20,000 nt of DNA from Catajapyx aquilonaris (taxonomy: Eukaryota), in assembly GCA_000934665.2 (NCBI GenBank), contig JYFJ02001929.1:46384-66383 (forward strand), given 5' to 3'. Shown here in pieces: positions 264 to 20,000 of the stretch. The notes beneath the pieces are model-generated. The model did not search any database, was not told the DNA's origin, and saw only the letters and a program-made list of their open reading frames with translations. Both the position numbers and the translations under genes were made by a program. How positions within the stretch are numbered: the first letter of the stretch is position 1; every line of letters starts with the position of its first letter.

Positions 264-521
264 ACCCCTACAAGCCAGCCGGCCCTTCTGTTCAGCTTCA
301 TGAACCCCCTGGCAGTGGAAATATGGCTGTACGTGCTGGCAGCCTACATCCTGGTCTCCTTCACCCTCTTTGTGATGGCCCGATTTTCCCCATACGAGTG
401 GAACAACCCCCATCCGCCAAGGGAGGAACCTCCAATGGTCGAGAACCAGTTCTCCATCTCGAACAGTTTCTGGTTCATCACTGGTACATTTCTCAGGCAG
501 GGCTCAGGACTCAACCCGAAG
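264..521 (+). CDS. Grik: Pore exon A (pre-M1, M1, M2; R at Q/R site), 86 codons
   Basis: Acceptor cag at 261-263, donor GTCAGG at 522, 258 nt, phase 0/0. Translation [21 protein letters not shown]...[18 protein letters not shown]. Confidence 0.93.
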
Positions 522-2973
522 GTCAGGTTGATTCTCACAACCCAATATGACTGCTGGAGGAAGGAGGTTTTAAGAGGACTCGTACTGGGGGAGACCACTC
601 TTATGTCTTATGATCATGTGTCCGGGGGTCATTTTCCTTCTATTTTTCTATTTTTTTGGACATTTTTAGGTCCCTCAGAGCATGCCCCGTCGTCTGTTCT
701 CGTTCATGACCCCCCTTGCGACAGAGATCTGGGCCTACATCGTGGCCGCCTACCTGACAGTGTCCGTCACCATTTGGGTGGTGGCCAGGTTCTCCCCCTA
801 CGAGTGGACAGAGCCCCCTCACACCAGTGACCCCTGCCTGATGACCCCTTCCCCGTCAGACACCACTCAACCCGTCAACAACTTCACCCTTTCCAACTGC
901 TTCTGGTTCACCATGGAAACTCTCCTACAACAAGGATCCGGAATCTACCCGAAGGTACCATAGAGTTGGAATCTCGTCATGTGCCACCTGAATCTTCAAC
1001 ATTTAAAGATATAACATTGCTCAAAATGATTAGGCTGGAACATCCTGTTATACATTTTTTATCGGTGGCCTCACGAGTGAAAATAAGCACCATTATTAAA
1101 CGATTACATCGCAGGTGAATCCAGTCGTGAAAAATATTTAGATTCATCATCATTGGCGTGGGATGCCCCCTGAACTTAATGATTCCTGTACCGTAGAGGA
1201 ATTCAAAAATAAGCACCGAAATTTAATTTCATTCACTTACCCCAATGTTACTTCATTCTACTACTGTTATGTCTATCGGTCTCTTTTTTTATTTTAATGA
1301 AGTGCAGGATAGAAACAATCTAAATCATTGGCATACGGATTACACTCACAGATTGAGCTTTCACAACCATAACCTTTTTGATGCGTTTAATGTGTTTTGA
1401 GCTACAAAACTCCCCATCAATGGCTTCAAGGCTAATGCGACCAGTGACTGCCGTTTACTTTTACATCTTTTCCAACAATGGTGCTTATTTTCAAAACTCT
1501 ATGGTACATGAAATCCTTGTAGCTACATGTAGTTTCACAAGCTTTTCCCTTGCATTAGTTTAATTTAATCAGTAATAATAACCCATCACCAATCATCGAT
1601 CGTCTATGATTTAAAAAAACAGGCAGCTTCCACACGGATAGTTGGCGGAATCTGGTGGTTCTTCACTCTGATCATAATATCTTCATACACGGCGAACCTG
1701 GCAGCCTTTCTGACTGTGGAGAGGATGATCACTCCCATAGAGAGCGCGGAGGATCTCGCGGATCAAAGCGAAATACCGTACGGCACCTTGGAGAGTGGAT
1801 CGACCATGACCTTCTTCAGGGTGAGTCTATTCCAGTCAAAAGATCAACAACTTGTGGAATGACACTCGTTTCGTAGGACTCGAAGATCGAGACGTACCAG
1901 AAGATGTGGCGGTACATGGAGAGCCGAGAGCCAGGCGTGTTTGTGTCCACATATGAGGAAGGTGTGAAGAGAGTCCTGAGGGGAAACTACGCCTTCCTGA
2001 TGGAGTCGACGATGCTCGATTATGTGGTGCAACGAGATTGCAACCTGACACAAGTCGGTGGACTTCTCGATTCCAAAGGATACGGGATCGCCACTCCTAA
2101 AGGTACATTTCTAATAATCCATCCTACAAAATGTGTTCAACCTATGACAATATTCAGGTTCGCCATGGAGAGACAAGATATCTCTGGCCATACTAGAGCT
2201 TCAAGAAAAAGGGACCATTCAAATCCTGTACAATAAGTGGTGGAAGAACACTGCTGACGTGTGCAACCGAGAGGAAAAGGGAAAGGAATCAAAAGCCAGT
2301 GCACTGGGCATTGAAAACGTCGGTATGTAACTACGATGCATTGCCATCAATTGTGGTCATGTCACTTCTTTAACACGCTTTGTTACATCTCAGGAGGCGT
2401 TTTTGTGGTGCTGTTGTGCGGACTGGCTCTGGCCATAGTGGTGGCCATTTGTGAATTTTGCCTCAACTCGAGGAAAAACGCCAAAACAGACCATGTAAGT
2501 AAACTCATCCGAGAGTGAAACTACAGCATGAGGCATAAGCACAAAAAATATTGCAACAACACAAACCAATCTCCGGGAGTGCTAGTGACTTCTTGCTTTA
2601 AATGATCCTGTAATTTACTATCAGAGCTCTCAGCAGTAAGAACAACAAAATGATTTCAGAAATCAATATGCTCCGAAATGGCCCAGGAACTTCGCCTGGT
2701 GCTCCACTGCTCATCAAAAGCATCTCGAAAGAAGTCTGATCTCAAGAGATCATGTTCCAGATGCTCTCCCAGCACTTACATGCCCGCCTCACTTGATCTA
2801 CATCAGCTTAATAGGGTGCCGGTAAGTTACATGTTACGAGCGAAATTAAATATCTTGTTTAAAATAATCTAAGTCGCATCTCTTTCTTCTTTGCGTACAT
2901 ATAGGAAAACGGGATCATACCAATGATAGAGTTGGACAAATCTCCGGTGATGAGATTCGGAATGGATCAGTGA
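264..2973 (+). CDS. Grik: Kainate-type ionotropic glutamate receptor subunit (CG11155-like), 3' portion. Spliced CDS: [264-521 OR 670-954], 1623-1820, 1877-2102, 2158-2322, 2394-2494, 2660-2821, 2905-2973. The 5' exons lie upstream of the window.
   Basis: Manual splicing at GT-AG sites gives one continuous frame with iGluR hallmarks: LFSFMNPL-M1, ARFSPYEW, M2 pore FWF..G.FLRQGS, M3 [16 protein letters not shown]2 [13 protein letters not shown] and [30 protein letters not shown]4 [14 protein letters not shown]. Clade assignment is from recalled similarity, not a search. Confidence 0.95.
551..632 (+). promoter_or_regulatory. Intronic element complementary to both flanking duplicated exons (candidate docking or editing-complementary sequence)
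   Basis: 578-594 pairs with 384-399 (exon A) or 791-805 (exon B). 624-632 pairs with 300-309 or 706-714. Further colinear helices are present. Function is inferred. Confidence 0.5.
670..954 (+). CDS. Grik: Pore exon B, a paralogous duplicate of exon A (Q at Q/R site), 95 codons; putative mutually exclusive alternative
   Basis: Long pyrimidine tract 633-667, AG at 668-669, donor GTACCA at 955, 285 nt, phase 0/0. Translation [21 protein letters not shown]...[18 protein letters not shown] aligns end to end with exon A. Confidence 0.88.
1623..1820 (+). CDS. Grik: Exon: M3 (SYTANLAAF gate) and start of S2
   Basis: cag at 1620-1622, GTGAGT at 1821, 198 nt. [66 protein letters not shown]. Confidence 0.95.
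1877..2102 (+). CDS. Grik: Exon: S2 ligand-binding lobe
   Basis: tag at 1874-1876, GTACAT at 2103. [18 protein letters not shown]...[12 protein letters not shown]...[15 protein letters not shown]. Confidence 0.95.
2158..2322 (+). CDS. Grik: Exon: end of S2 and S2-M4 linker
   Basis: cag at 2155-2157, GTATGT at 2323, phase 1/1. (G)[54 protein letters not shown]. Confidence 0.95.
2394..2494 (+). CDS. Grik: Exon: M4
   Basis: cag at 2391-2393, GTAAGT at 2495. (G)[33 protein letters not shown]. Confidence 0.93.
2660..2821 (+). CDS. Grik: Exon: cytoplasmic C-terminal tail
   Basis: tttcag ending 2659, GTAAGT at 2822, 162 nt in frame. [17 protein letters not shown]...[14 protein letters not shown]...RVP resembles the S-x-CSEMAxELR tail of this clade. 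Confidence 0.88.
2905..2973 (+). CDS. Grik: Terminal coding exon ([22 protein letters not shown])
   Basis: Pyrimidine tract 2879-2892, tag ending 2904, in frame with the phase-0 donor at 2821, TGA at 2971-2973, polyA signal downstream. The peptide itself has no diagnostic motif. Confidence 0.7.
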   Translation, partial: ENGIIPMIELDKSPVMRFGMDQ

Positions 2974-3164
2974 TGGTGATCCAGATGGATTGAACCACAT
3001 TGCAGCTGAGAAAAGCCAAAGCCTTAAAGTCTGTGATATAACCACCAACCAAAAAGAAACCATTGAAACGGCGAATGCTGCTCACTCATCGCTATCTTTT
3101 TAAAAACTTTTCTATTGTAAGCCCACTTGCATACACTTGTGGGACCGTGACATGTCAGTGTTTT

Positions 3165-3170
3165 AATAAA
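3165..3170 (+). terminator. Polyadenylation signal AATAAA of receptor gene 1
   Basis: Canonical hexamer about 190 nt after the stop codon, followed by U/GU-rich sequence (3182-3226). Confidence 0.65.
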
Positions 3171-3730
3171 GAACGCAGTTATTTTTATTACTAACATTAT
3201 TGTGTAATTCGTTAGGGTTTTTCTGGTCAATTTTTTAAATTATGCCCTACTGTTATAAACCGTAAGGGAACAGCTGACGAAAGCTTCTGTCAGACCTTGT
3301 GAAAATATAATCCAAATTACGTATTTGTTTATCAGAAAAAAGCAATCAAACTGTTATTCGTATAATTGATTCTGACCAGAATCAGACAAAATATTGATGA
3401 TTTCATAACACGGAGAATTGAAGGCCCGATACTTATAAAGGCCAACCTTGAATGCAATGAGCATCCTCTGAACCTTCAACTCCGCGAAATCCAATCCTTT
3501 TCCAAGATCCGATTAGAGCGTTTCCGCCGGTGCTCAAGTACCCGCGATTTAATTAGTCAATGCGCCCCGTACAGTAATATCCAAGGCCTGAAAGGCTAAG
3601 GCCCCCATTTACAGCCAAATCTTCATAAGGATCGTGTTAAGAAACACGTTTAACTGGGATGCGTTGGTAATTAAACAAGACAGAAACTGTCGGAATTGCA
3701 ATGTATACGTTTCATACCAGGCTTACGGTA

Positions 3731-3883
3731 CAGGGTAGCTTAAATTCCAACGAGACAGGTAAAGTTCTCAAAGAGATTACACTGTCTTAATCTACACATA
3801 TTTATCAATTTCTCTTATATATGAAAAATTATTTTAAATATCAAAATTAAAGTGGGGCCAAAGTTTCTTGCTGAACCACCCTG
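3731..3883. mobile_element. Probable Tc1/mariner-type MITE relic (153 bp)
   Basis: Ends CAGGGTAGCTTA and (reverse complement) CAGGGTGGTTCA match 9/12. Both are flanked by TA (3729-3730, 3884-3885) and the interior is AT-rich. TA|CAG ends are typical of Tc1/mariner. Inverted similarity does not extend further. Confidence 0.4.
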
Positions 3884-6800
3884 TACAAAATTGCTTCAAT
3901 TGGATGCCCAACTGCGGATTGGATCGAATTTCATTAACGAGTAGCGCTCAAGTTTTGCGAATCGCGAATCTTCGCAAAAGTTTTCCAAAAGTTGGAAGGT
4001 GCATTTCCCTGGCTGGAAAACAAGCAGCGAGGAAATGCAACCAAGTGTAGCAAAAGCGAGCAAAAGTCCGGCAGTGGAATGAAAATGGGGGGTCCCAGCA
4101 GTGTTCCCCCCCCCCCTTCCCCTCTTTTCCAGCAGGGTTGGAAGAGAGAAGTGGACCGAGCGAGTGATGCTGGGGCTGGACCGAAAAACCTTTCATCTTT
4201 TGGCAGCAACGGAACCGAAAGGATCAGCAACGACTCCAGCTTCCGCTTCCCATCCCAAATCATTGGCTTCCAATTCAAAAGAGACTTAGTTGCTCGACTT
4301 ACGAGCCGGAACTAATTGGCTGCTGGACGGAGAAACTTCTGTCTCTGTGACAAAGTGTGAGCAGAATTCAAACAAAAAAAAATCCCTTAATGACTCGTCG
4401 TTTCAACGCCAATTAAGAGTAAAAATTTTCAACTGAGATTCTAAATTATTTGAGATTTTCATATATAAGCTGTGAATATTCGCATAGTCTGACATTTACT
4501 TTAAATGTGTTGTTATAGTGTGTTTAGATTTCAATCACATCCACAGACTGTTGCACGCGATTTTCAGAGCGAAAGCGCTTGGCAGTTCCATTTAATTAAT
4601 GTTGGTGAATGAACGGAGCAATATGCATGATTAAATCTGTACAGTGCAACCTACCTGTACGACCAGTTCATTTCAGTATTGCGAGCAATTAGTTCTTGGA
4701 GTGAAGACCATTTACATTAAGGTTGGTATCCATTAAAGACATCACAATTAGAAGGTGTATATGTATGTTTTTTAAATGATTTATTTAGGACCGTCTCTGT
4801 ATTGCTGTGCCAGTTACAGTCATAGCCCATTAATGTGCCATTTTAATATGCATTGAAACTGAAGAAGAAAAGCAAACGTCTCGGATTACGACCTTCTTTA
4901 CGGCAGTTCATTTCTTCTGCCCCGGGAAAACAATGGTGCTAAAGAAACCCTATGTCTTCAGTAATTAAAAGAAAACATGGGCTGACCGCAATACGAAAGT
5001 CATCATTGGTACCATCAGCTTGGAGCAGTTTCGATTGTGAACCAAGCTAGATGAGAGAGGAAAAAAATAAGAGTTCTCTGCAGGAAGGAGCGTCATTCGG
5101 ATTGAACACTTGGAGAGTAATGTGGGCACTTCGGAGCATCGAGAGAGAAACGTCCCTTAAAATACCGCTTAATTACTCTATTACCATCCAGTCGTTTACG
5201 CGGATTTAAGGAGGCAAAAATGGCTCCATTCAATCCAACTTAATTGCTCCTATGCGCCACTCTCTTTTTTATATTATATATTTTTTCTCTGGGAGTCTCC
5301 GATTTATAGCTGATTTAATCGCCACCAGTTAACGTCCTGGAAATCCATAAAATCACTGAATTTGTTGGGTCACATATTCACACTCTAATGACCTTCACTT
5401 TTACATTTAGCAAAACTTGGCAACACTGCCTTGCCCACACTGGATATGTAGTACCACATGCCTCACATACATGGCACATCCTTCCTCTCTGAACAAAATA
5501 AGAAAATTTTATGCTCATTACATAAGAGGTACGTTTTATGAATCTGTTCAGTACTTAATATGCATAAAGTGAAGGAATCAATAAGCCTGGTTTTCCCTTC
5601 ATCAGCAGTTGTTGCAATCTAACTTAGAAAGATCCTCTGATTGAAAGTGCTTTTTTTATTCAAATAAAGGGGAAACCGGCAGACAGCGGTGTACTTAAAG
5701 GTCGAGGTATACGTTAGCAGCAAAGTTCTTCGCATAGTATAACGAAGGCCTCAAGCAAAATCCTTTCTAGAGATAAGCCGTCAAAGACAGTCAAAATTTG
5801 GGCAGACATAACTAATATTCTTATAAGGTTGTTCCAACCACCGCAGGCCAAAATAATAAAGCTATTTTAAAAAATTTATTGTAATTTCGTAATTTTCCAT
5901 AACTTTTGCTAGAATATTTTACTAACGAGAAACCTCAAACTGAGCTTCTGAGTTTGTTCTGGTCCAGATATATTCCTCTTTCCAAAATCCCATGGCCAAG
6001 TCTTCCTGGCGGCCACAATGCAACTGGAATGTCAATGGCTCAGAGGTCCACACACCAAGGAAGCCCACGACTCCCTTCCACTATGGAAACCTGCAAAAAC
6101 CCGCACCATAAGTACGCCCGAGGGAGAGCTAAAAATCAACAAGAGTTTCGGGAGGGTTATGGCATTCACTTTGAAACTTTTCATTCCGATACGGTTTTTT
6201 TTTGCAAAAAAATAAGACCAAGTTTTAGATGTAGCAGATCTGCACGTGAAAAATAAATCCAGAAGAATCCACTGTGCATTACAGATTATTACATATCTTC
6301 CAGCATGTTGAATCCTACATACAACGGAATGAAATTTTCTGACATACTTTCCATAAAATTAAAAGGATTTTACTGTATGTGTTTTAGTCACATTGAGATC
6401 AACTATCAGATGATGAAACTAACAAAGTGAAAGCAAAAACAATCGATTTGTTAAGTCCTCTGTTAGTAATCCAATAATAACATTAGGTTCCAATTATTAT
6501 TTTAATGGAATTAAGCAAACGAGAGGACTGACTCGTCCCTTGCACACGACAAGTTCAATGCAGGTCTGACAAATCCTTGTCTTTTCTGACTCGAATGTCA
6601 ATTACCACTTCCCTTTCATGCCATTCCGGATGACAGCAGGCGAATGTTGAGTAAATGAGGTGTAAATAAGCGAACCCCCCCGTCAGCATTTCCATGCGTT
6701 GAAGAGCACTTGTACGTTGATAAAATTTGAAATTGCGAACTTTCATTTCCAAAAAAAAACCCGCACACATAATGCAAGGTATGTGAGAGCATAAATATTC

Positions 6801-9800
6801 CAGCAGGCGTTAACCAGCTCAGAAGCTCAAAATTTACGACATCTCCTGAATCGTCAACCGCGAGGTGACGAATTACATGAGCTCGTAATTAAGCCATAAA
6901 ATGGGATATAGAAGGGAGTGGCATAGAACAGACCAGTGTAGGCCCCAGAAGTTCATTATCGGCATTGCCATGAAATATACAGGTCCGTAAATTATATTAA
7001 GGCTCGCAGTGTACATTACGGTTTCAAAAAAAAATTGTATAAATCAGAGGGCTATCGATTACGTTGCTGTATAAAGCTTCGAACGTGTGGATTTCACGTT
7101 CATTTTTCAGCAGCCCCGTCATTGAAAAATTATCGCTTCACACGTAAATCCATTCCCCCTTCACATAATCACCTTCACAATGCCATTAGAAGAGGCGACA
7201 TTGCCTTTTATAGCCCAAGCGGCAAAATGATAAACATGTTAAGTTTGGAGCGATTAAAACCCTAAAATGAAGCTTCTACTTCTACAGAAAAAAATAGTCT
7301 TGTTTACCTCACGCAACTCAGGATTTTACCACACTGTTTCACGCCTTGTCCATTAGAGAAACTTTACGACCGCTTTTCGTCCGGGTGTTTAATAACTTTG
7401 TACCTGCTGTTATAGCATGGAAATGGTACGTCACGCTGCAATTAAAAAGCGTTTAGTGGCTGGCTGGGATCTCCTCGCTTCAGCTACCAACCGGCTTAAT
7501 TTCCTCACCGACAACCAGCCAGATGAAGCCATTTACACTTCCTAGAACCAGCTTCCGAGAGCATTTTGGTAAGGTTAAGAAGGCCAGGTTTATTAAGAGG
7601 TCTCCACACGCACTCTTACGTCAGAAATTAATTACGATCCGATTGCAATTTATCCAGTAAGTACTGCTGTCAACAACTTGCTTCACCTCCATTATAAAGA
7701 GGAAAAAACATTTGTGATAATGCGTTTGGCGCCTTTACAAAAACAAGGATGATGAGTTCTCTTCTATAGTGATCCGAGAAAACAAAAATTGCAAAAGTTT
7801 CTCACAAAATGAAGCAAAAGGGATTAGCTTTTCACGTAAATGTTATAAAAACGATCGATGCTTTAATTAAAGCCCTAGGAGCAACTTTTTCCCCTCCCAT
7901 TCCCAAATTATTCAAGAGCAATTTCAAGCCAAGCTCCAATCGTTGCTGGAAAAGGTGGCAAAGGCAAAAAAAACGGTTTACTAACTTGGCTTAAACAACA
8001 TGTTAACATTGATAATTTTATCAGTTAGTATTACCGTTAGTATTATAATTTCAATGACTTTATTTCCATTGGACTTGCCAAAAAAGTAGCCAATATCGTT
8101 CCCTAAGGTGAAATCAATACCCAGTGGAAATGGGTGTGGAAGAGAGCGATCCACTTAACCCACCCTTCTACACCCCAATCCCTGCTTGAAATTTAATGTG
8201 TCCAGTGGACTTGGACCTTTCATCTCTTCCCCCATGCTTCTGATGTCATTTTTCGGACACTCAATCGGAGTCAGGGGCTGTCTGGCCGCAGGATAACAGT
8301 CTCAACAATTTTTATTGAACAAAAGGTCTCCTTTCATCCTCCCCATTTGCACAAGAAGACAACCCGGGCCCCTTCAACAATCCAACCCAATCACTCTCCA
8401 TAATCCAGCTGGGGGTCCAAATCAGCAAAAGTGTTATTTCCAAGCCCTAGAAGCTGGGGGAGAGGAAGAAGCGCGGTAAAATCAAATAAAAGGCAAGCTT
8501 TGATCTTGTCCCACAGAAAAAGAGAAGGCTTTTTCACTCTTCATTCTGTATATCTAGCTGTGTGATCCTATGTTTGTGAGTCACGTGCTGAGAGTCAGAT
8601 ATTGCTTCTGAAATAGAGGCTGTTGAGGCAAAGCTGAACTTATGGCACACCTTGTATATCACGTAGCAGCGATTGGTAGAAAATAAATCCTTGCTAATGG
8701 AAACTGCCAGCAACCTTGGTCCCAATCCCAAGGGCATCGATTCCCCCAATTAATGGGATTGGGCTTGGTGTATATATGGGCCAATGGGCGTGGGAATAAT
8801 ATTATAGGAAACAGACTGAAGGAGACAGACAAACGGCCATCTTTTAATTACAACCCAGATTATTAATATCGGGTGAGCAACAAAGGTGTTTTCAGCTACA
8901 AAGTAACCAAAGTAAGTTGATGGAATGTTGATCTTTCCCTTTAACGCAACAACCAGATCTAAGAGGGGATGATCAAAGAGACCTCAAAAGCGAAAACATA
9001 ATTAGTTTCAGATGAAATTCCAATTTGTGGTGTGCCTTAGAAAAGCCAGGATTATCCTTCAGTCCTACCTGCACCTCCTATTATTCATTCAGTCCACATT
9101 TTTTTTCGCCAAGCAAGAAAATCTATCCACCGAAAACAAGAGCGATTTGTTCGGCAATCCCTTTTCCATCAAAGCCCTAACCGTACACCCAAATTGTTAT
9201 TTTATCCCCTTCGAACATCGTTGTATGTTGTGCGTGTGTGTACACATTGGGAGAAAACTCCCCAAAGGCTGATGCTCACCCACTATGAACCGGAGCATTA
9301 TTCATGCAATGATCCTCTTTGTACTGTCCATATTTGATTGTGTGTTGTTTGTCTTTGTTTGAATAACTGATGCGGTCTGTTTCTCCCTTCGGGTTACACC
9401 CGAATTCTGTCGACTGTGTGTCCAGTATGGGGCAAACAGCGCATTATTGCATTTTATTCTCAATTTTGGACCATGTTTAAAATATCTTTCATGTCCTTCT
9501 CTCCAAGTGTTTGTATACTTGTACAATGCAGTGGGTTTCTGAGTGACAATGAACAGAATAAAGTGTCACCAGCACCAGTTAGAGAAGGTGGTGGACGGAA
9601 CAAGGTGGTAATTGACCCGTCAGTGGACTCAACATATCTGACCGCGACCAATTAACACCGCCATAATTAAATCTCAGTAATGTCTGGCATGTCTAGAGAT
9701 TTTTTTGTGGATATGTCGCCTCAAAAAAATGAAGGCTCTTTCTCTCGCTTTAGAAAAAAAAGCGTGAATATATCTCCTGAAAAGCGAAGCAGGCAGCATG

Positions 9801-10070
9801 AAGGAGATGATGTCAATTACAACCCATTATAAGCTGAGAGAGACCCGTCTTTGCCACGAACACTCGCCAATTTCCGACGAAGGTTTATCAAGGCTCTGAC
9901 GCTAATGACTTTTTTTTTCTCTCGCTCGCTCGTCGCAAGAAATCCGTTGCGTCAACTGTGCAAGAAGTCTGTTGATTAGCTCTCGCTTCCGCCTTGGAAC
10001 TTGATCTGCCTTGTTCAGAATCACATGCTTTACATTCGTATAAAAACTGTTCTAATTATTCACATTTTTT

Positions 10071-10176
10071 CCTTGCCTACCCTTACCATACCTTACTTAA
10101 CCTTCCCTAACCTAATCTGACCTAACCTAACCTAACCTAACCTAACCTGACGTAACCCTAACCTTTGAACCTAACC
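10071..10176. repeat. Interstitial telomere-like (CCTAA)n / (TTAGG)n pentamer array
   Basis: About 20 pentamer units: perfect (CCTAA)5 at 10121-10145, with degenerate units (CCTTA, CCATA, CCTGA, CGTAA) on both sides. Confidence 0.9.
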
Positions 10177-12122
10177 ACAGGAAAATTATTAACTAGATTT
10201 TAGTAGCCTACAGTACTTGGATCAAATAAGTGCAGACATCTAATGCTGTATTTCTTACTTGAAAATATTTCTGCATTCATGTAGATCACGTACAGGCAAA
10301 GGAGGAATGGCGCATTGAGGTGTTATGTGGCGGTTGATGAAGCCTGGTTCTACCTCGTGCAATATTATTCAGTTGGAGGCTCCGGAATCTCCCTCGGATA
10401 TGAGCATACCCGGAATTCCAGAGTGAGACACGACAACTTTCTCACCCCCCACCCTTATACTTGCAGGGACCTTTCCCAGGGGTCTCTTTTTCGCCAAAAA
10501 TATATTCTCATACTCTGGAGGGGAAGTCCAAGGTGAAGGCAATATAAATACAACCCACCCCTAGAGGCCTCTGGAATATGAGGCTGCTGTGGTCTGACCT
10601 TACCCTTGTTTAGGAGATGTTTAAAGCCGGACAAGATTGTGATTAAATCCAGTATTTTTCCTACACGAAGCGAGCAACATCGATCATGCAAATGAGGTTT
10701 AATGTGAAGCGGATATAACGGATTTCGCTTATGGAATATTAAGCCATGTAATTTTCACTCGAATAATTTTCTCTATACTACTAGGGAAAAGTGCATTGAC
10801 TAAAGAAAAATGACAGAAGCTCTAGTTTGAAATGTTGATCAGTTTTTGATCGATAGTTGTTGCGAGGCTGATAATGTCGAGTGGTGAGAGCATTGCACTC
10901 AACCAGAGCACGCGAGAGACCTCAAAACAATCATATTGTTCGCTCTCGCAGGGCTTTATAAATGAGCGGTTGACCGCAACAAAAGAGCATTTGTGTCATT
11001 ATTAAGCTTTTCCTATAGCCAACTGCGATATAGAGGACTGAAATCAGCTCTATCAGATGTGGTCGCATGGCTTTTCATAATAATCCGCAATTTTTGATGG
11101 CCTCGAAACATTGACGAAAATTCCGGGACTGTGCGTTGAAACAATGGAAAAAATTAACTCCACTTCCAGATAACATGCGTTATCGCATCAATGTGACCAT
11201 TTCGCTGGACCTTAATTGCCGTGCAGAACATTATGCAATGGTTGCGGCTAATTGCTGATGCAAGAAAATGTGGGAATAATCGCAATTAATCATAACAAAT
11301 GTATAGTTTCGCACCGATTGTGTGTTACATTTCAGTTGCTGATTTCTCCTCATTAAATTAATGATTGGAGAGGCTCAATATTTTTTTATTGCGTGAAATA
11401 GCATATTAACACCACAATAATTAATTCAAATATTAATTTCTTCACTTTCTCTGCTCATCTTTAGAGTCTCACGTGCCATTGACTCTCGCTTGCCATTTGC
11501 AAGGTACAGCCTGAGCCAAGAGAAAAGGAGGCTGCATTACGCCGGATTAGTTCCGCAGTTGGTTTGAAAAGGAGCCAACATTTCTTGTGACGGGTTGGTG
11601 GGGGAAGGGGATGGAGAGGAAAAGGGGTTGAAAGGGAGAGGGAAAGAAGTGGTATCAAGGCGAATCATTATTGATCCTCCATAAGAAGAAGAAAGTTGAG
11701 GGGAGTTGGGGGGAGGCCAGATTTTCCAGAGCAACTGGAGCATGCGAAACATCCTTCTCTTTTTTTCTGACTCACTAAAAATGTGCAGAGTCCATGTCGC
11801 ATATTGTATAATGGGCATGTAATTCAAGGAAGATCGTAAATTATTGTGACAGTTTAGTAACAGTACTGTTGTAATATGTCGTTAAAAAATGTGTTTAAAG
11901 CTGGCTTTGAAGGGTATGCAACTCTGTGTGGAAAGGGTGGAGCCTGGTGATGGGGGGCCCGGAGTCTCATTCGTGGGACTGAATCCGGGCAGGGCACAGG
12001 CGCAGGTTTTAGGCGGAAGGGTAGGAGGTGGATGGGGTGGGCCTAAAAATATTAGGCCCTTTACTGGTCTGGGTTTCGGTTCGCCTGGCAGAGGCACGTG
12101 GGACGGATAGGAACCATGAGCC

Positions 12123-12228
12123 ATGCCGTTGCCCAGGGGCCACGGGGCGGGCCTCCTCGCCCTCACAGCCCTATTCTTCTGCCTCGGGGCCGCCCCTGTG
12201 CTGGCCCTGCCACCGGTCATCAAGATAG
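12123..12228 (+). CDS. Grik: First coding exon (signal peptide plus start of the amino-terminal domain) of a second kainate-type iGluR gene
   Basis: gccATG at 12123. MPLPRGHGAGLLALTALFFCLGAAPVLA|LPPVIKI(G) has a hydrophobic core, a V-L-A signal peptidase site and the LPPVI(K/R)IG start typical of insect kainate receptor mature N-termini. Phase-1 donor AG|GTCAGT at 12229. Locally GC-rich. Confidence 0.82.
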
Positions 12229-15200
12229 GTCAGTAAATGGCTTCTGTGCATTAATTTTGGGGTTAGCATATTAATAGCAATATTAACATATTTTTAAACC
12301 ATACACGCAATAAAGCCATCCCACATTAAGAGCAATGAATATGCCAAATGAATTATTGGATTCCAATTTAATCCACTTATTGATCATAGATTGGCACAGT
12401 CCAAAATGACAGTTGGTCACTGCAAATAATTATGCTAGTTATCCACAAGAGCATTTTGTTTCATTACATCTTATTAGTGTGGTTTGGAATGGAACGTAAT
12501 TACTTAATTACTTCGCGTATGCCACAAATGTGAGTGACTCTTCAGCAAATTTCGATGACCGGATAGGAATCACAGCCATTTACAGCTGTTGCGATTATTG
12601 ACAATGATTCCGTCAGTTTAGTACTTAAAAAACTAGATGTAATTTGTCTCACTTTTCGGCATATAAAAGCCTCTCCCGGCAACTGCAATGTCCAAGGCAA
12701 TAAAGGCATGTGACAGTCTATGACCGGATATTTACCTTTCTGGCTGCGAGGTTTGATTAGGAAACCAGATGCGATACTGGGGGACCAAAAAGGCCGGAAA
12801 GAGTAATTCCGGACAGAGAATGAATTCTTGTGGGAATTCCTCGGGTGCTCATTTACAAAAGAGACTGAACCGCGTCGGTTTATTTACTCGTGCCATAAAG
12901 CAAGCGCTTATAAAGCCCCCCCCCCTGCGGTTCCCAGCTCTACAATTACACAGATAGGAAGCTTAAAAATGGTTCAGAGAGGCCGATAGAGCCAGACTTT
13001 ACAGCCCTAAAATTATACTGGGACCAGTGTCGGCAACAACACTTACTTCCGACTCACTACGCAATCTAATGGATTGTTCGAATCGTTTTTGAAACATCCT
13101 GTAGCTTTGTAGCAGCATTTATTGAGCGTACGACCTGCCTCTCTGAGCAGACAGAATGATCATTACGCACTTGGTCATTTCCATAAGCAAACCATCCTCG
13201 GTGGGCATCACTCTTGAAACAAAATGTCAGTCCTACTCTCAGCTTGCAAAATCTCGAATTTGCATACAGAGCCTGGATGCGAATTCCGATTTTATACGAT
13301 CAGTAGGGGTTTTTTTTGGGGGGGGGGGGGGTGGAAAGTACGAGGAGGCCACAAATCCTGGTCGTGACCGTTTATGCCGAGTCCTTCTCGTAACATTATT
13401 CAGGCTTTCAAAAATACATAGAGTGGTGGAAAAAATGAAGAGAAAAAAGAGAGAGAAAAAATGAAAGGAAGAGAGAACCGCCATTTTCACTTAAGAGTGA
13501 CCCTGACATCACCAGTCAATACCTCTTTTTCTCTCTCTCTGAACTAGGTCTGACTGCTCTTTTCAGATTTGAAGAAGACAAAAAAAAAATGGAGGCAAGA
13601 GAGAGACAGGCCTACCTTTTGTGCTAGTCCATCAGACGGAAACTTGGGGCTATTCTCAGGCACGAACAGGACCTGGGAACATAAGATTTGTCTTAGTTTC
13701 TTCCACACGAAAAATCACTGACTTATAGACTTTGGTCACGTCACATTCCTTTGCTATAATAAATTGTGTAAAGCAAAGAACTACTGTCCGCATCAAACCA
13801 AAAATGCTTGGATTTCAGCTTATTAATGACATGGAAAGAAGCTACTAATTGTAGAGAAGTTGGTTTGAATGAACTGTTGGAAAGTCGTATGTCCCTGGGC
13901 TTAGCTCCCTCCAAATTCGGGGCTTAGAAGGCGCTTTAATTCCGAACATCACCGCTGGTTCTCTCCCGCGATCTTCATCTAATCTTGGCCCCAAAACTCT
14001 CCTCTGCTTGATGTTAAAGAGCAAATCCCTCCGGAACCTCCCCTGAATTCGGATGGACCTTCTTGCCCTGTCCCTCAACCCACTTCTCTCAGGAAGGGAC
14101 AATTCAAAGGTCAGATTTCCAGACCTCTGTAATCGTTTATTATACAACGAACAGAAGCTCCTGACATGATAATCCCTTCCAAGTTTGGGCAGATGAGCAA
14201 CAAATATTCCGAACCGAGCGGATTAATCATTAACTGCTGGCGGAAGTTGAGTCATCAAGGCCCTCGTCTTAATATACTTGCCCATCAAAATGAGAGCCAG
14301 GATTCCTTTAATTACCATAATAAGCCGACTTTGCAGCCAGGAGCAGAAATGGAGGGTTATAAATCGCAAGGACAATTATTGTCTGCAGGGTATTTCATAC
14401 TTATTCCTCGAAACGCTTTGATACACCCTGTAGGCACCCCCCAAAAATGTCTGCACCTCCCAATCCATCAGTTAGAAAAATGGAATCGGGATCAATCAGC
14501 GTTCAATCCACATCAGAAACGAGGATGGGTCCAATAATTTATTCGGCGTCATCCTCTCTTTCTATCCAGGAGAGCGTTTACCCGATGGAAAGCTGTCTTT
14601 ATAAATCAGTGTGATCCAAAAGAGAAGGTTGTGTGACTGGTCCTCCTCTTGCTTCCTCCACATTCATGGCTCCAAGCCAGATTTCGAAGGGGGACCCAAC
14701 TGGCGCCGACTGGAGTACCAGAAACAACCTACTCCAACAATAGTCACTGACCTACCCGAATCTAAAGCATTTTGCTCCTTTACAATTTGTAGATTTGGAT
14801 GTGGTAATCCACATGTCCTGAAAAAGAGGCTGTTCACACTTCTTTTTTTTCTGAGCAGTTAGCTCGTCATTAATCCCAGTGCCTTAAGCCTTCATCCCTC
14901 TTAAGACAGTTTGCGCTCCTTCAAACGGCGAGGCAAAGAAATGCGAGAAGAATCCCCGAGAAAATCCCTCAAGTGGCGTGCATCATCCCTTACATAAATC
15001 CCCCACTGCAGACTGGTGCAAGTGAGAGCCACAAATGGTTTCAAATCTAAGATCAAAATTAATCACAAGCTATAGAGAATTGACTCTTTTTTTCACTTCC
15101 AATTATTTAAAATGTATCCTGTGTGTAAAGTAACAAAGTTTTCACCATGACAATACTCAGCTAGTGCTCCTAATTCTATATTAAAATTTGCATATATTAT

Positions 15201-18200
15201 GGACGTCAAAATGTTTCCCATTACTATAAGCTGAGTTCTTCTCTATTCCCCAACCTACAATGCAAGTTAGAAGCATAAAACGAGCCCTCTTTTGATTGGA
15301 CGAGTCTTCTTATTTTTCAGCCCTTATTCTACGCGGGTATGCCTTACAATGAATGATGCCATCACCTCGTTTTGCACCAAGTGTAAATTGTTCCAGGAGA
15401 AAACGTGGTTCAAATATCATCCAGAAATGAGATACACAAGCTCAGGCAGTACATTTTCCTCCAGGGATATACGCCGTTTTCTAAGTCTCAGAAAAAAAAA
15501 ACTAGCTCAAATATTGCCCGTTTCGTCCATGCAGAATTGGGCATAAATCGAGGCTTCCCTTGCTTCATTTTCGCACTAATTATTATCTGGCGAGTTTCAA
15601 CTATGCTAAAAACTGGGAGGAAGGGAATGGGTTGTATAATTGGGTGGAAAAAAGAGAGGAAGTTGTTCGATAATCCCTCAGGCATTATTCAGCCTTGCAA
15701 TTTGTAAAAGTACGCCGCCTGCTTATTTTAATGACGAGATTTCAGCTTAAATTAGCTGGTTTCTTCAGAAAGTCAGATTATTATTTCTTAAACGTAAAAA
15801 AAGTTGGTTCCTATACTTTTATGTGCATTCATAACGCGACACTCAATATGTGGCTTTAAGATCCGCATGCAAATGGCGTTCATTGTTGCGAAGGGTTGTT
15901 CCAGCCAAGCATTTATCACGTAGCATTACGCACTCATTATAATTAATTCCTTGCTTAAAGCACGTCACCCTGACTTAATGACTTGTCATGCAGGACTCCA
16001 TCATGTATACGATTCATTATTGCGCATCGTGAAGTGACTTCTATTCGGACAGGCAGCATTGTGCCATGGTTACCATTCAAAATCTCAAATTAATCCCTCG
16101 TTTAACTGAAATCAATGTACCTTTTTGGCGACTGGCTTAATTAAACGGTCAAGATCGGATCGCACATTATTTTTTGAGTCGGACCTTGATCGACAACCAC
16201 GACTGGTTTCAATTAGGTCGTCTAATGCGTTAGGTGCCAAACCCCCTGATATCTGGAGGGGCTCGTTAACTCGTGATTAATGAGCCCCAAGCGTATGCAC
16301 CTTTCCCATCCATCAAACTCATCCCTGTGACTCAAGTGTCGAGCAATCCTGCCCTAGGTGGTTTCAGGATTGAAAATCAAATATTGCCTAGTCTCAGCTT
16401 CCAGTCTCCAAATGTTTGTTCCCAGTTTTTTTAAAAAAAAAAAGTTGACCCGAGCAAATGTAACGACTTTTTTTTTTGTCCAGACCATGATTCACACACA
16501 CTGCGACAATGGGAACTGGTGACAGGTTTGGAGGGGGGGGGGGGGGAAAAAGGTCGCAAAAATTACGATGGGGGAATTTCGGGGGGAGTAATTTTCAAAA
16601 AAATTAAGATTTATGCACCCGGTGCTGTTGTTTGTCTGATGCTTTTATGGCAAGTTTATAGTCTCCGGGAAGGATAGCCCTGTCCTGTCAGACGCCTTCC
16701 AGCCAACATAAATTATGGAAAATGTTCCAGGCCTGAACCCCATATCACTTTCCAGCACCTATGAAGAGTTAATAATCTGCACTTTTGATAATTGCAATTC
16801 GCAGCTCGAACTTATTGTCGGACACGAAATAATAAAAACGGCGGGGATTTGTAGGAATTAACTCTGCCCGCTAATGAATGCCTGTGTTAATTACACCCGT
16901 GCGGCTGTTCCTGGGCAGCGGAATAGTCGGACTTAATCAGAGGTTCTGAATAGGACCACTCCATAAAATGTACAGTGCTGTGGAAACCTGAAGATTAAAA
17001 AATATATACAGTTTGAATATGCGGATTGGACAAGAAACCAGGTTTCATTCGGATGTGAAGTGCGTCATATTCCATCAGGATGAATTTTGAGCTATTGAAA
17101 CAAATATTTACCGTTCCTGCAAGTGACAGGCGGCCCCCACACAATATCACTTCCATGTAGTCCGAAACGATGACAAATTTTGGTCCTAAGAGACGCATCA
17201 GTTCTGGCAAAAAAAGTGATGAGAAGAAGGGTGCATTTGACATGCCAAACAAGACACGAACAAGTGTGTCTGGAAGGTGGCGGGGAAGATCTGGCTTCTG
17301 TCACGTAGCTAAATGATCAATAGTTGGCTGATGTAATGCGTTGCTGCTTAGACAGAGAAGGATGTCAAATGTACCTCTTGTTCCTGCTGAAATTTCAGGA
17401 CAGTCAAATTCAAAGAAGTTCAGGGATAATACGTCACATCCAGAAGCTTGAAAAGAAACGCAACTTTGCTCAGTCATAAACGCCATGTCATTTTTCAGAC
17501 CTTTTTTTTTTTTGGCACTGGAGTCCGTGAGGTGACAGAAAAATGGGGTAGGAAGATGCGGGAAGGCGGTGACAAATGGGTGGAAAGGACCGCTCGACCC
17601 CAACCCAGATCGAGGACCGGCCCACACATTTTTGTCGCCCAGGGTGATAAGGCCAGTGGTATAAAAAGTTGCGATCATAAATTCCCCCACAAAAAAGACT
17701 TGACCTCCTTCGGTTCCACTATCAAAATGGAAGCAAAGTGCCCTGAACGCGATTAAACACACCTTTTTGTATCAAATAGCTCAGGAATATCCTCTATGAA
17801 CTTTAATAACCGGATAAGTCACATACAGTGTTCTTTCGCAGTGAACAACCTCAGTGTATCGATCATGTCGCTTCGAGAGAAGAGACAATATTAGAGCCTG
17901 CAAAATTCTCCGCAGAATTCCAATTGGAAGGACCCCTGAAGACGTCGATTTACATTGCAAATTGCACCCGCTTCTTATTAAGTCCTCGTGTCTCATTTCC
18001 CTGATTTATTATGTTGGGGGGGCTAATAATGGTTAGAAAAAAGTGCGGAAAATTGTCCTTCTTGATGGGAATGGTAATGACCTCTCCCTTCCCTGCTTTA
18101 CTTTCTTTCTAATTATTTCATGTCCGCTCGCGCCTGAGTCATTTGGTGGTCTTGGAGGCCACAAGAATAGTGCTCTTAACTTCTAGACGAAAAAAAATAC

Positions 18201-20000
18201 ACGCCATTACTCCGCAACTGCAAAGTCAGGCCAGCTTTTGTTCCCTTGTCGCTATAACTTCACAGCCAAATTAATCTGACCATTTGAAGCATGACTCTCA
18301 GCTCTAAAATTTTACTTCGGGCCTTGTTGTCTTGCAGAAAAACGTACTTATTTATTATAAGAAGGTTAAGGCACATAATATTTTGTGTGCTAATCACTGT
18401 TATTTAAAAAATCGCCGTTTTGCTCAGCATCATTGATAATAAATGAAAATGTCTGTTGTCTGGTGTAGGAAAATTGTACTTCATGCACTAATTTTCGGCA
18501 TGGAAGGGAATTCTGCTGGCGAAATTAAGGAAGCCTGGTCCTGCAAATTGGCCCATTCCGGAGGGTCGTTCCTGGCAAGAAATTCCGGAGACCTTAGTTC
18601 CTCCTTACTTCCGGAGTAAAATTCCTTCACGGTCCGGGCATAACACCTTTCCTTCCACCAATATTCCCTCGCTCAAAAAAGATAAAACTGGTTTTTTCCC
18701 CCCTTGCAATGACCAAAGTTGGGAAAAGGGAAAGTTATGTCACTCATGTTTCAGCTCATGTTGAATTCATGCGCTGCAATAGTGCAAAACCATGAGTCCG
18801 TTAATAAACAATTTGGGAGCGGGCTTTGTTGTCTGGCTGCTTGGAATATTTAGGCCAACCCGAAGCCCATTTAGGTTAACACGACCGCACAATTGAGTCG
18901 TTAACGAGCATTTAGCTGCAAATGGCGCAACCTCATTAATGCAAATTTAGGTGTAATAAGGAAAAAAATTCACGCGTACAATTCCATGGTGAGAAAAAGA
19001 CTTCCACTTTTTTTTGGGAGGGACCAAAATTGATGTCACTTTCTTATGAAGGGAGGTACCAGCCGCGGAAGCAAAGAAAGACTTGGTTCCATCGGAAGAA
19101 AGATTGGCAAGTGGGTTATTCCCTTTGGCCCCGGGGCGACGAAGCAAGACGGGAACTAATGTCGGTCTGCCCCGGAGAGAGAGTGACTCTTCCAACCGCA
19201 GCAAGAGATCGAAAATTCCACAGAGGCGATATCCTAGAGAAATAGATCACAAAATAGCGATTTTTTTTTCAAAGTGTAGGAAAAATCATATGGTCTTCGT
19301 CGAAGGCCAAATATTATATGAGGCAATAAAAATGGAATGAATATCGGGTATACATTTGGCAGAAGTGCACTTTCATATAATATTACACTGATCAAAAATG
19401 CACGACTCTAAATGACATTCTGAAATTACATTTCAGAAGACAAAGGAATAACGGTAGGTACTGATTAAATTTGGATTCAGTGTGCCCCCCTTTCAAAATG
19501 TAATAATGCTGCACATTAAGTAGAGTAAATACATTTCGAATTCTTTAAAAAGGAACGAGCCAAGCAGCCTGTAAGAAATTGCCAGTCTCTTATTCGCAAA
19601 GTTGGAGAGGCACAGCAGGATGCGGTGGTAGAATCGCATTGCTATGCAAGAAATGAGGCCCAAGCATCCAACCGTGTATATAGAGAGTGGAGGAAGGAGA
19701 GGGGGAAAAAAAAGGAGCAAGAGTTAATCCCCACGTCTGTTTTGCGTATACGAAACTACGTGACGCCGTGTTCCTGGTTTTTTATTCCCGTGTCTGGAAG
19801 GGCAGATAATGTGCAAATAAGCTTCTTTTTCCACCCCCGATCCTGCTTCCAGCTTAAATTAAAGCTCGACAGATCCGGAGCAAGTCAGGCGCGGAATTGC
19901 GATCAAATTACTTGTGAAATTCCTATACGTGTCACACACACTGGAGTGTTCCCAAAGGCAGTGTCTCCATCACAATAATGCAATTCCCATGAAAGATAGA
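12229..20000 (+). other. Probable first coding-region intron of the second receptor gene (over 7.7 kb, open-ended)
   Basis: Starts at the GTCAGT donor. No phase-1 acceptor continuing with (G)AIF... was found by eye, and there are no credible ORFs. Confidence 0.6.

Follow-up and report, generated by a model that had tools for sequence, protein, structure and literature searches.

Duplicated pore exons encoding arginine or glutamine at the Q/R site of a kainate-type glutamate receptor gene in Catajapyx aquilonaris: a probable ancient splice-encoded switch

Two pore exons in a kainate-type receptor gene

The stretch of DNA analysed here (the window) comprises 20,000 nucleotides of the Catajapyx aquilonaris contig JYFJ02001929.1 (assembly GCA_000934665.2, positions 46,384 to 66,383 of the forward strand). 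Judged by the sequence matches described below, it carries on its plus strand the 3′ part of a kainate-type ionotropic glutamate receptor (iGluR) gene, the orthologue of Drosophila CG11155. In this gene the exon encoding the pre-M1 segment, M1 and the M2 pore loop is present twice, as an exon A with arginine (R) and an exon B with glutamine (Q) at the Q/R site of the pore. The duplicated pair is a probable ancient, splice-encoded R/Q switch.

Exon A is 258 nt long (86 codons) and lies between an AG at 262-263 and a GT at 522-523, while exon B is 285 nt long (95 codons) and lies between an AG at 668-669 and a GT at 955-956. Both are in phase 0, as is exon C, which follows an AG at 1621-1622. 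In the preliminary description of this locus, made from the sequence alone, the two had been read as paralogous phase-0 pore exons that differ by an AGG (R) and a CAA (Q) codon, and every coordinate given for them proved correct. In translation the two agree in 48 of 95 aligned columns (51% identity; BLASTP E = 2e-31), far above chance, and the pair has the hallmarks of a tandem exon cluster, in that its members are adjacent, homologous, similar in length, equal in phase and bounded by intact AG and GT dinucleotides. Retention of the intron between them would shift the reading frame.

Features of the receptor gene in the window, in order of position
Feature	Position	Strand	Description and basis
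Exon A, R-type	264..521	+	pre-M1, M1, M1-M2 loop, M2 pore loop; sequence, GluK2 alignment, Pfam
AGG arginine codon	495..497	+	aligned to the GluK2 Q/R site
A-B intron	522..669	+	148 nt, GT...AG, 42% GC, long pyrimidine tract 5′ of exon B
Exon B, Q-type	670..954	+	pre-M1, M1, M2 unit; M1-M2 loop 9 residues longer than that of exon A; atypical pore
CAA glutamine codon	928..930	+	at the Q/R-site position
Intron between exon B and M3 exon	955..1622	+	668 nt, 36% GC
Motif copy at exon B 5′ splice site	955..967	+	13 nt perfectly complementary to 1495-1507
Second direct motif copy	1186..1218	+	possible competitor for the inverted copy, duplex -35.0 kcal/mol
Inverted motif copy	1474..1507	+	pairs with 1078-1097 (20 nt, 95%) and with 955-967
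Exon C	1623..1820	+	end of pore region, M3 (SYTANLAAF motif), start of S2; common acceptor for A or B
Exon D	1877-2102	+	tblastn, eight relatives; boundaries read from sequence
Exon E	2158-2322	+	tblastn, eight relatives; boundaries read from sequence
Exon F (M4)	2394-2494	+	tblastn, eight relatives; boundaries read from sequence
Exon G	2660-2821	+	tblastn, eight relatives; boundaries read from sequence
Exon H	2905-2973	+	stop TGA 2971-2973; tblastn, eight relatives; boundaries read from sequence

Searched on its own, each exon aligned to solved GluK2 chains over residues 551/552-629 of 908 (E = 1.9e-26 for exon A and 3e-20 for exon B), and for both exons the best PDB sequence matches were GluK2, GluK1 and GluK3, ahead of the GluA chains. 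In these alignments the R of exon A and the first Q of exon B lie opposite the leading Q of 'MQQGS' in GluK2, known as Q621, the Q/R editing site. The Pfam domain Lig_chan was matched by exon A at profile positions 2-64 (5.6e-19), by exon B at 2-63 (8.9e-16) and by exon C at 66-113 (4.7e-21), and the SYTANLAAF motif read in exon C is a further feature of a kainate-type channel. Since exons A and B match the same Lig_chan positions, the two specify one domain segment, which would be duplicated in any protein that includes both; this agrees with the earlier statement that co-inclusion would produce two M1/M2 units. Exon A is 84-88% identical to kainate-type models from decapods, isopods, an amphipod, Daphnia, Artemia and many insects, including Drosophila proteins named or grouped as CG11155; none of these matches is identical, and by such comparisons the source looks like a pancrustacean of uncertain class. 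Full-length orthologue models also carry PF01094, PF10613 and PF00497, domains that are encoded upstream of the window.

The tblastn comparison with eight relatives revealed no copies of the M1-M2 unit in the window beyond A and B. Downstream of the stop codon, window positions 3000-20000 hold 17 open frames of 101-156 amino acids, none with a Pfam match. There are no Rfam matches in the window, and the remaining 17 kb give no hint of a further gene.

Conservation and age of the exon pair

We aligned 22 A and 22 B units taken from 23 proteins of named malacostracans, branchiopods and insects. The Q/R site is R in all 22 A units and Q in all 22 B units, and the units of the relatives fetched from these three groups stand in the order R-then-Q, as they do in the window. 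A comparison of both exons with arthropod genomes had been put forward as a check; among these relatives the R-versus-Q contrast is conserved. A second contrast, not mentioned in the preliminary description, lies at the +4 pore site, where all A units have G and 20 of the 22 B units have D.

Exon A is strongly conserved, with 68 of its 86 columns near-invariant across the 22 species and the window deviating at 3 of them. Exon B is far more variable and tolerates insertions of up to ~160 residues in the cytoplasmic M1-M2 loop. Two local peculiarities of the window's exon A are an AL in place of TR near its start and, at 417-419, a proline in the M1-M2 loop (NPHPC) at a position occupied by cysteine in 22 of 22 orthologues of the alignment.

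A second sample consisted of 37 metagenomic loci recruited with exon A, none of them more than 86% identical to the window in DNA. Here the A pore loop is identical letter for letter in 22 of 22 R-type units and in the window (23 copies), while the arginine itself is encoded by AGA (9), CGA (6), CGC (5), CGT (1) and, in the window, AGG (1), none of which is a Q codon. Because the residue stays identical as its codon drifts across both arginine families, R is held by selection. The AGG codon of the window had been offered as evidence against a simply fixed edit; it carries little weight in that respect, since orthologues also use CGA, CGC and CGT.

In a maximum-likelihood tree of 46 units and 86 columns, the root of which is not known, all R units, whether from orthologues, from a paralogue or from a barnacle, lie on one side of a split with support of 100/99, and 14 orthologue B units, including that of the window, form one group (93/84). 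The paralogue is a second kainate-type gene with an R-then-Q pair of its own, found in a termite, a locust, hemipterans and a mayfly (P0029, P0051, P0074, P0069, P0049), and its R units nest inside the R clade of the CG11155-type gene. In this paralogue it is the Q unit that is conserved, whereas the R unit evolves fast (branch 1.18), so that the roles look reversed relative to the CG11155-type gene; such a reversal fits one dominant exon in the pair of each gene. The exon pair is ancient, an age that the preliminary description did not note, and it is widespread and not peculiar to this genome.

Some crustaceans carry only the R unit. This is the case for both annotated isoforms of a barnacle (P0152, P0384) and for another crustacean lineage represented by full-length contigs resembling complementary DNA (cDNA-like) together with matching genomic loci (L003, L006, L011, L012, L013, L015, L022 and L024-L026). 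In L013 and L015, in which the end of the unit can be placed, the M3 exon lies ~90-120 nt past exon A, which leaves no room for an exon B. The receptors of the barnacle and of the matching crustacean loci are R-only in the genome. Other related receptors with a single unit have histidine (MHQGC) or lysine (MKQGC, codon AAA; L021:4205-4255) at the Q/R position (P0165, P0168, P0176).

Exon use in transcripts and gene models

Taking these features together, we think it reasonably likely that this kainate-type receptor gene with its duplicated pore exon gives rise to mRNAs carrying A or B joined to C, so that the R/Q state of the pore is set without editing. An old tandem duplication of the pre-M1/M1/M2 exon would have left two alternative versions. 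With exon A, the Q/R site is R and the +4 site G, and its pore is predicted, by analogy with vertebrate receptors, to be poorly permeable to Ca2+, low in conductance and free of polyamine block. Exon B carries Q, in most species together with Asp at +4, and by the same analogy would give a pore of the Ca2+-permeable, polyamine-sensitive type. Since A and B fall on the same profile positions, a functional subunit would have room for only one of them; productive mRNAs would then carry either A or B joined to C, and exon choice, not editing, would determine the pore state. Across the evolutionary depth sampled, neither unit has lost any hallmark of an M1-M2 segment, as is expected only if each works in some transcripts. 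Alternative exon choice is thus plausible and is strengthened by the deep conservation of the pair, from which, together with the one-domain argument, we infer the use of one exon per transcript. Exon A is probably the main form, because it is near-invariant across Pancrustacea and is the only unit kept where B is absent, and exon B would be a minor, faster-evolving or specialised form.

Extended beyond this genome, the same reasoning leads us to lean, if only slightly, towards a broader view in which Pancrustacea choose the Q/R state of their kainate pores through two ancient exons. One of these would encode an invariant R with Gly at +4, be of single origin and be common to the two paralogues, and the other would encode Q with Asp at +4. 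The pair would predate the split between malacostracans, branchiopods and insects, and exon B would have been lost in some crustaceans, which became R-only.

Several gene models and contigs contain a single unit. A-only models are found in Apis laboriosa (isoform X2) and as partial models in Dendroctonus and Bactrocera oleae, and B-only models in D. virilis (isoform C) and D. gunungcola (X2), each of the latter being exactly 86 residues shorter than the tandem isoform; the paralogue contributes a Q-only model from Cryptotermes (X9). It had been anticipated that such isoforms might already be annotated in related insects, and for both A and B they are. In addition, a protein fragment (P0228) joins the end of S1 straight to the B unit, and in the one RNA-like item, a cDNA-like metagenome contig (L001) whose exon A shares 94% identity with that of Daphnia pulex, exon C follows A directly; intron-like sequence lies 5′ of A, and the frame stays open to the stop codon. 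Among 120 short A-like fragments, 3 join the R unit to M3; none of the 120, most being plain genomic exons, contains a spliced A-to-B junction. The contigs L003, L006, L011 and L012, in which A is likewise joined to exon C, were rejected as evidence of exclusion on account of matching genomic loci, whose exon A has the same 'IPSGKPTRL' start and which have no exon B.

A number of observations weigh against exclusive use. Models with both units in tandem make up 109 of the best 120 hits to exon A, as well as, in 20 clusters, 90 of 95 and 14 of 15 of the members that have a unit, although both samples are biased towards tandem models, as two-unit proteins score higher (the best 120 extend down to 207 bits) and the clusters were entered via tandem representatives. 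Both units are also present in a Clastoptera record of the paralogue gene that exists in UniRef only and has no genome contig. This record is presumably transcriptome-derived, and if so a spliced A-to-B RNA would exist. Both exons are multiples of three in length, so that neither the frame nor nonsense-mediated decay would remove a co-inclusion product, and the A-B intron is short, with the strongest pyrimidine tract of the gene at the exon B acceptor. We found no mechanism in the window that would forbid its removal, all splice sites being ordinary GT-AG. The Drosophila clusters show tandem and B-only models and no A-only model, and L001 is a single contig in whose organism the presence of exon B is assumed, on the grounds that Daphnia models have it. 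The earlier proposal of mutually exclusive choice is thus upheld in part: single-unit isoforms and the A-C join of L001 support it, whereas the prevalence of tandem models and the failure to find an enforcing mechanism do not.

The tandem models, the Clastoptera record, the frame-neutral exons and the short intron would all suit an alternative in which both exons are normally co-included and the protein has two serial M1-M2 units, either as a non-conducting or regulatory subunit or with A forming an extra membrane hairpin and B the pore. The tandem models moreover include many RefSeq isoforms from species with deep RNA sequencing, and in Artemia all eight isoforms examined (seven of eight cluster members and X10) contain both units. 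Nevertheless, co-inclusion as the normal state seems improbable to us, given that A and B occupy the same Pfam profile positions and GluK2 residues, that two serial M1 helices would, by established iGluR topology, invert M3, S2 and M4, and that an M2 segment with a central R would make a poor membrane span. The existence of single-unit isoforms and of an A-to-C cDNA-like contig also speaks against it, as do the barnacle models and the full-length cDNA-like contigs of the other crustacean lineage, which hold one unit. The same tandem models often contain two serial copies of an S1 exon as well, which is impossible in one clamshell. Finally, annotation is known to fuse alternative exons into one model by mistake: according to the Kassiopeia paper (PMC3923563), the Mhc and DSCAM clusters had been annotated as constitutive in eleven non-melanogaster Drosophila species. 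The tandem models of the receptor may have arisen in the same way.

The S1 duplication was observed in many models of the gene and its paralogue (P0001, P0003, P0004, P0112, P0029, P0074), which have two serial homologous copies of the exon for the first half of S1. Judging by isoform length, unconfirmed in sequence, Artemia isoforms X4-X7 apparently have one copy and X10 none. The duplicated S1 exon is probably a second alternative-exon pair, located in the ligand-binding domain.

Inclusion and skipping of an optional cassette offers another way to account for single-unit models, with one exon (B) constitutive and the other (A) a cassette, or the reverse, and no true either-or choice. This would match the Drosophila single-unit models seen (D. 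virilis isoform C and D. gunungcola X2), which keep B without A, and the hymenopteran models that combine A with the M1 half of B (Cephus X5, Cotesia X3). We consider it very unlikely, however, because it requires a working tandem protein, with the topology and one-domain problems this entails, because A-only forms occur in a bee, a beetle, a tephritid fly and a cladoceran-like contig, and because the far stronger conservation of A than of B would be surprising if A were inserted only optionally. The hymenopteran exon B is divided into two, and some isoforms (P0084, P0354) join A and the M1 half of B to M3, an arrangement that makes no obvious topological sense.

Two further points against the A-or-B reading concern exon B of this genome. 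The window's exon B deviates at 4 of 35 near-invariant B columns, all of them in the pore loop (the usual Gly at -4, Met at -1, Asp at +4 and Leu at +5 give way to Glu, Leu, Gly and Ile, respectively), and its branch is long, 1.36 as against 0.23 for exon A. The Glu replaces a Gly found in all 22 other B units, and the +4 Asp is gone; this atypical pore is absent from the preliminary description. The exon's 5′ splice site, GTACCA, lacks the usual G at +5 and is predicted to be buried in a perfect 13-bp helix. Combined with the loss or absence of exon B in other lineages, these features could mean that exon B is disused or being lost here and that the gene is in effect R-only, like those of barnacles and the single-unit cDNA lineage. 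We regard this as unlikely. The 95-codon frame is open, the AG and GT are intact and the acceptor has the gene's best pyrimidine tract, and all the near-invariant B columns outside the pore are kept. The GC content at third codon positions of exon B (0.77) is coding-like, set against 0.53-0.73 in the constitutive exons, and far above the GC content of the flanking introns (0.36-0.42). In addition, Drosophila and Artemia have B exons with similarly long branches, and the donor of the constitutive exon D is similar (GTACAT).

The intron that follows exon B contains three copies of a ~34-nt motif, a number reached in 0 of 200 shuffles, and the motif occurs nowhere else in the 20 kb. One copy begins exactly at the exon B donor, its inverted partner lies 527 nt downstream, and the perfect 13-bp helix over the donor appears in both the minimum-energy and the centroid fold. 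The second direct copy would form a more stable duplex with the inverted one than either half of the first copy (-22.2 and -26.2 kcal/mol). Pairing at the donor was matched by 8 of 200 mononucleotide-shuffled introns and is thus only modestly unusual. On these predicted structures, motif pairing might regulate the use of exon B, a lead that comes from one species only.

Other candidate structures were rejected. A competing pairing of A-B intron positions 578-592 with the segment that encodes SPYEW in both exons involves 12 of 14 possible pairs, a value reached by 14-21 of 100 shuffles, and nothing comparable was found in three other loci that have both A and B. Duplex comparisons over the whole region gave diffuse structures that are not interpretable. 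As for a duplex of the editing type at the exon B glutamine codon, a single inverted repeat occurs there, 25 nt long and 72% complementary, and the local fold around the CAA is no more stable than shuffled sequences (z = +0.5, 67/100).

Relation to known editing and splicing systems

One close counterpart is Drosophila CG11155 itself, an uncharacterised gene on chromosome 4. It is the orthologue of the Catajapyx gene, with an exon A that is 84-88% identical and the same R-then-Q order, and differs from it in a B exon that has an insertion in the M1-M2 loop and encodes a unit ~80 residues longer. In the excerpts of the papers available, CG11155 appears as one of five fly neuronal kainate receptors, or through the use of RNA interference lines, with neither channel properties nor pore exons described there, and Ekar is the neighbouring gene CG9935, not CG11155. 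The portions of the literature searched yielded no description of an R/Q pore-exon pair, which FlyBase or earlier exon surveys may nonetheless list.

The flip/flop exons of vertebrate AMPA receptors lie before M4 in the ligand-binding domain and tune desensitisation; they too are homologous neighbours in an iGluR gene, share one phase and yield subunits that differ in function, whereas the pair described here encodes M1 and the pore loop itself. Arthropod channel genes also hold tandem-duplicated, mutually exclusive exons. Furthermore, by the formal criteria set out in PMC3923563 the pair resembles the mutually exclusive exons of Dscam and Mhc in adjacency, similar length, homology, common frame and conserved splice sites. 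In those genes, however, exclusivity has been demonstrated experimentally and is sometimes brought about by competing RNA pairings, while in the receptor we infer it, and no conserved pairing was found in the loci compared. If the two pore exons are indeed alternatives, most public models of this gene family, which appear to include both, depict a protein that does not exist and would mislead cloning, structure prediction and phylogenies. If exon choice sets the pore state, it would also provide, in Drosophila (CG11155) and Daphnia, a genetically tractable handle on Ca2+-permeable versus Ca2+-impermeable kainate receptors in an invertebrate nervous system.

In non-NMDA glutamate receptors, how permeable the channel is to Ca2+, how well it conducts and whether polyamines block it depend mainly on the Q/R site, whose editing in vertebrate RNA is the textbook example of an essential editing event. 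ADAR2 editing of GluA2, GluK1 and GluK2 concerns the same aligned pore position and the same two residues as the A and B exons. Since the Q/R switch alters Ca2+ permeability, conductance and polyamine block in the vertebrate receptors, a similar effect may be expected of A versus B. The likeness is one of outcome, and the Catajapyx gene is not a member of that class. Its R is genomic, lies in a separate copy of the exon and is encoded by five synonymous codons among orthologues; its alternative exon changes the +4 site, the whole of M1 and the M1-M2 loop as well; and the 72% repeat and unexceptional local fold (z = +0.5) around the exon B Q codon amount to no significant exon-intron duplex. 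If the reading proposed here is true, arthropods and vertebrates would have arrived at convergent solutions to one physiological need, the former by exon choice and the latter by editing.

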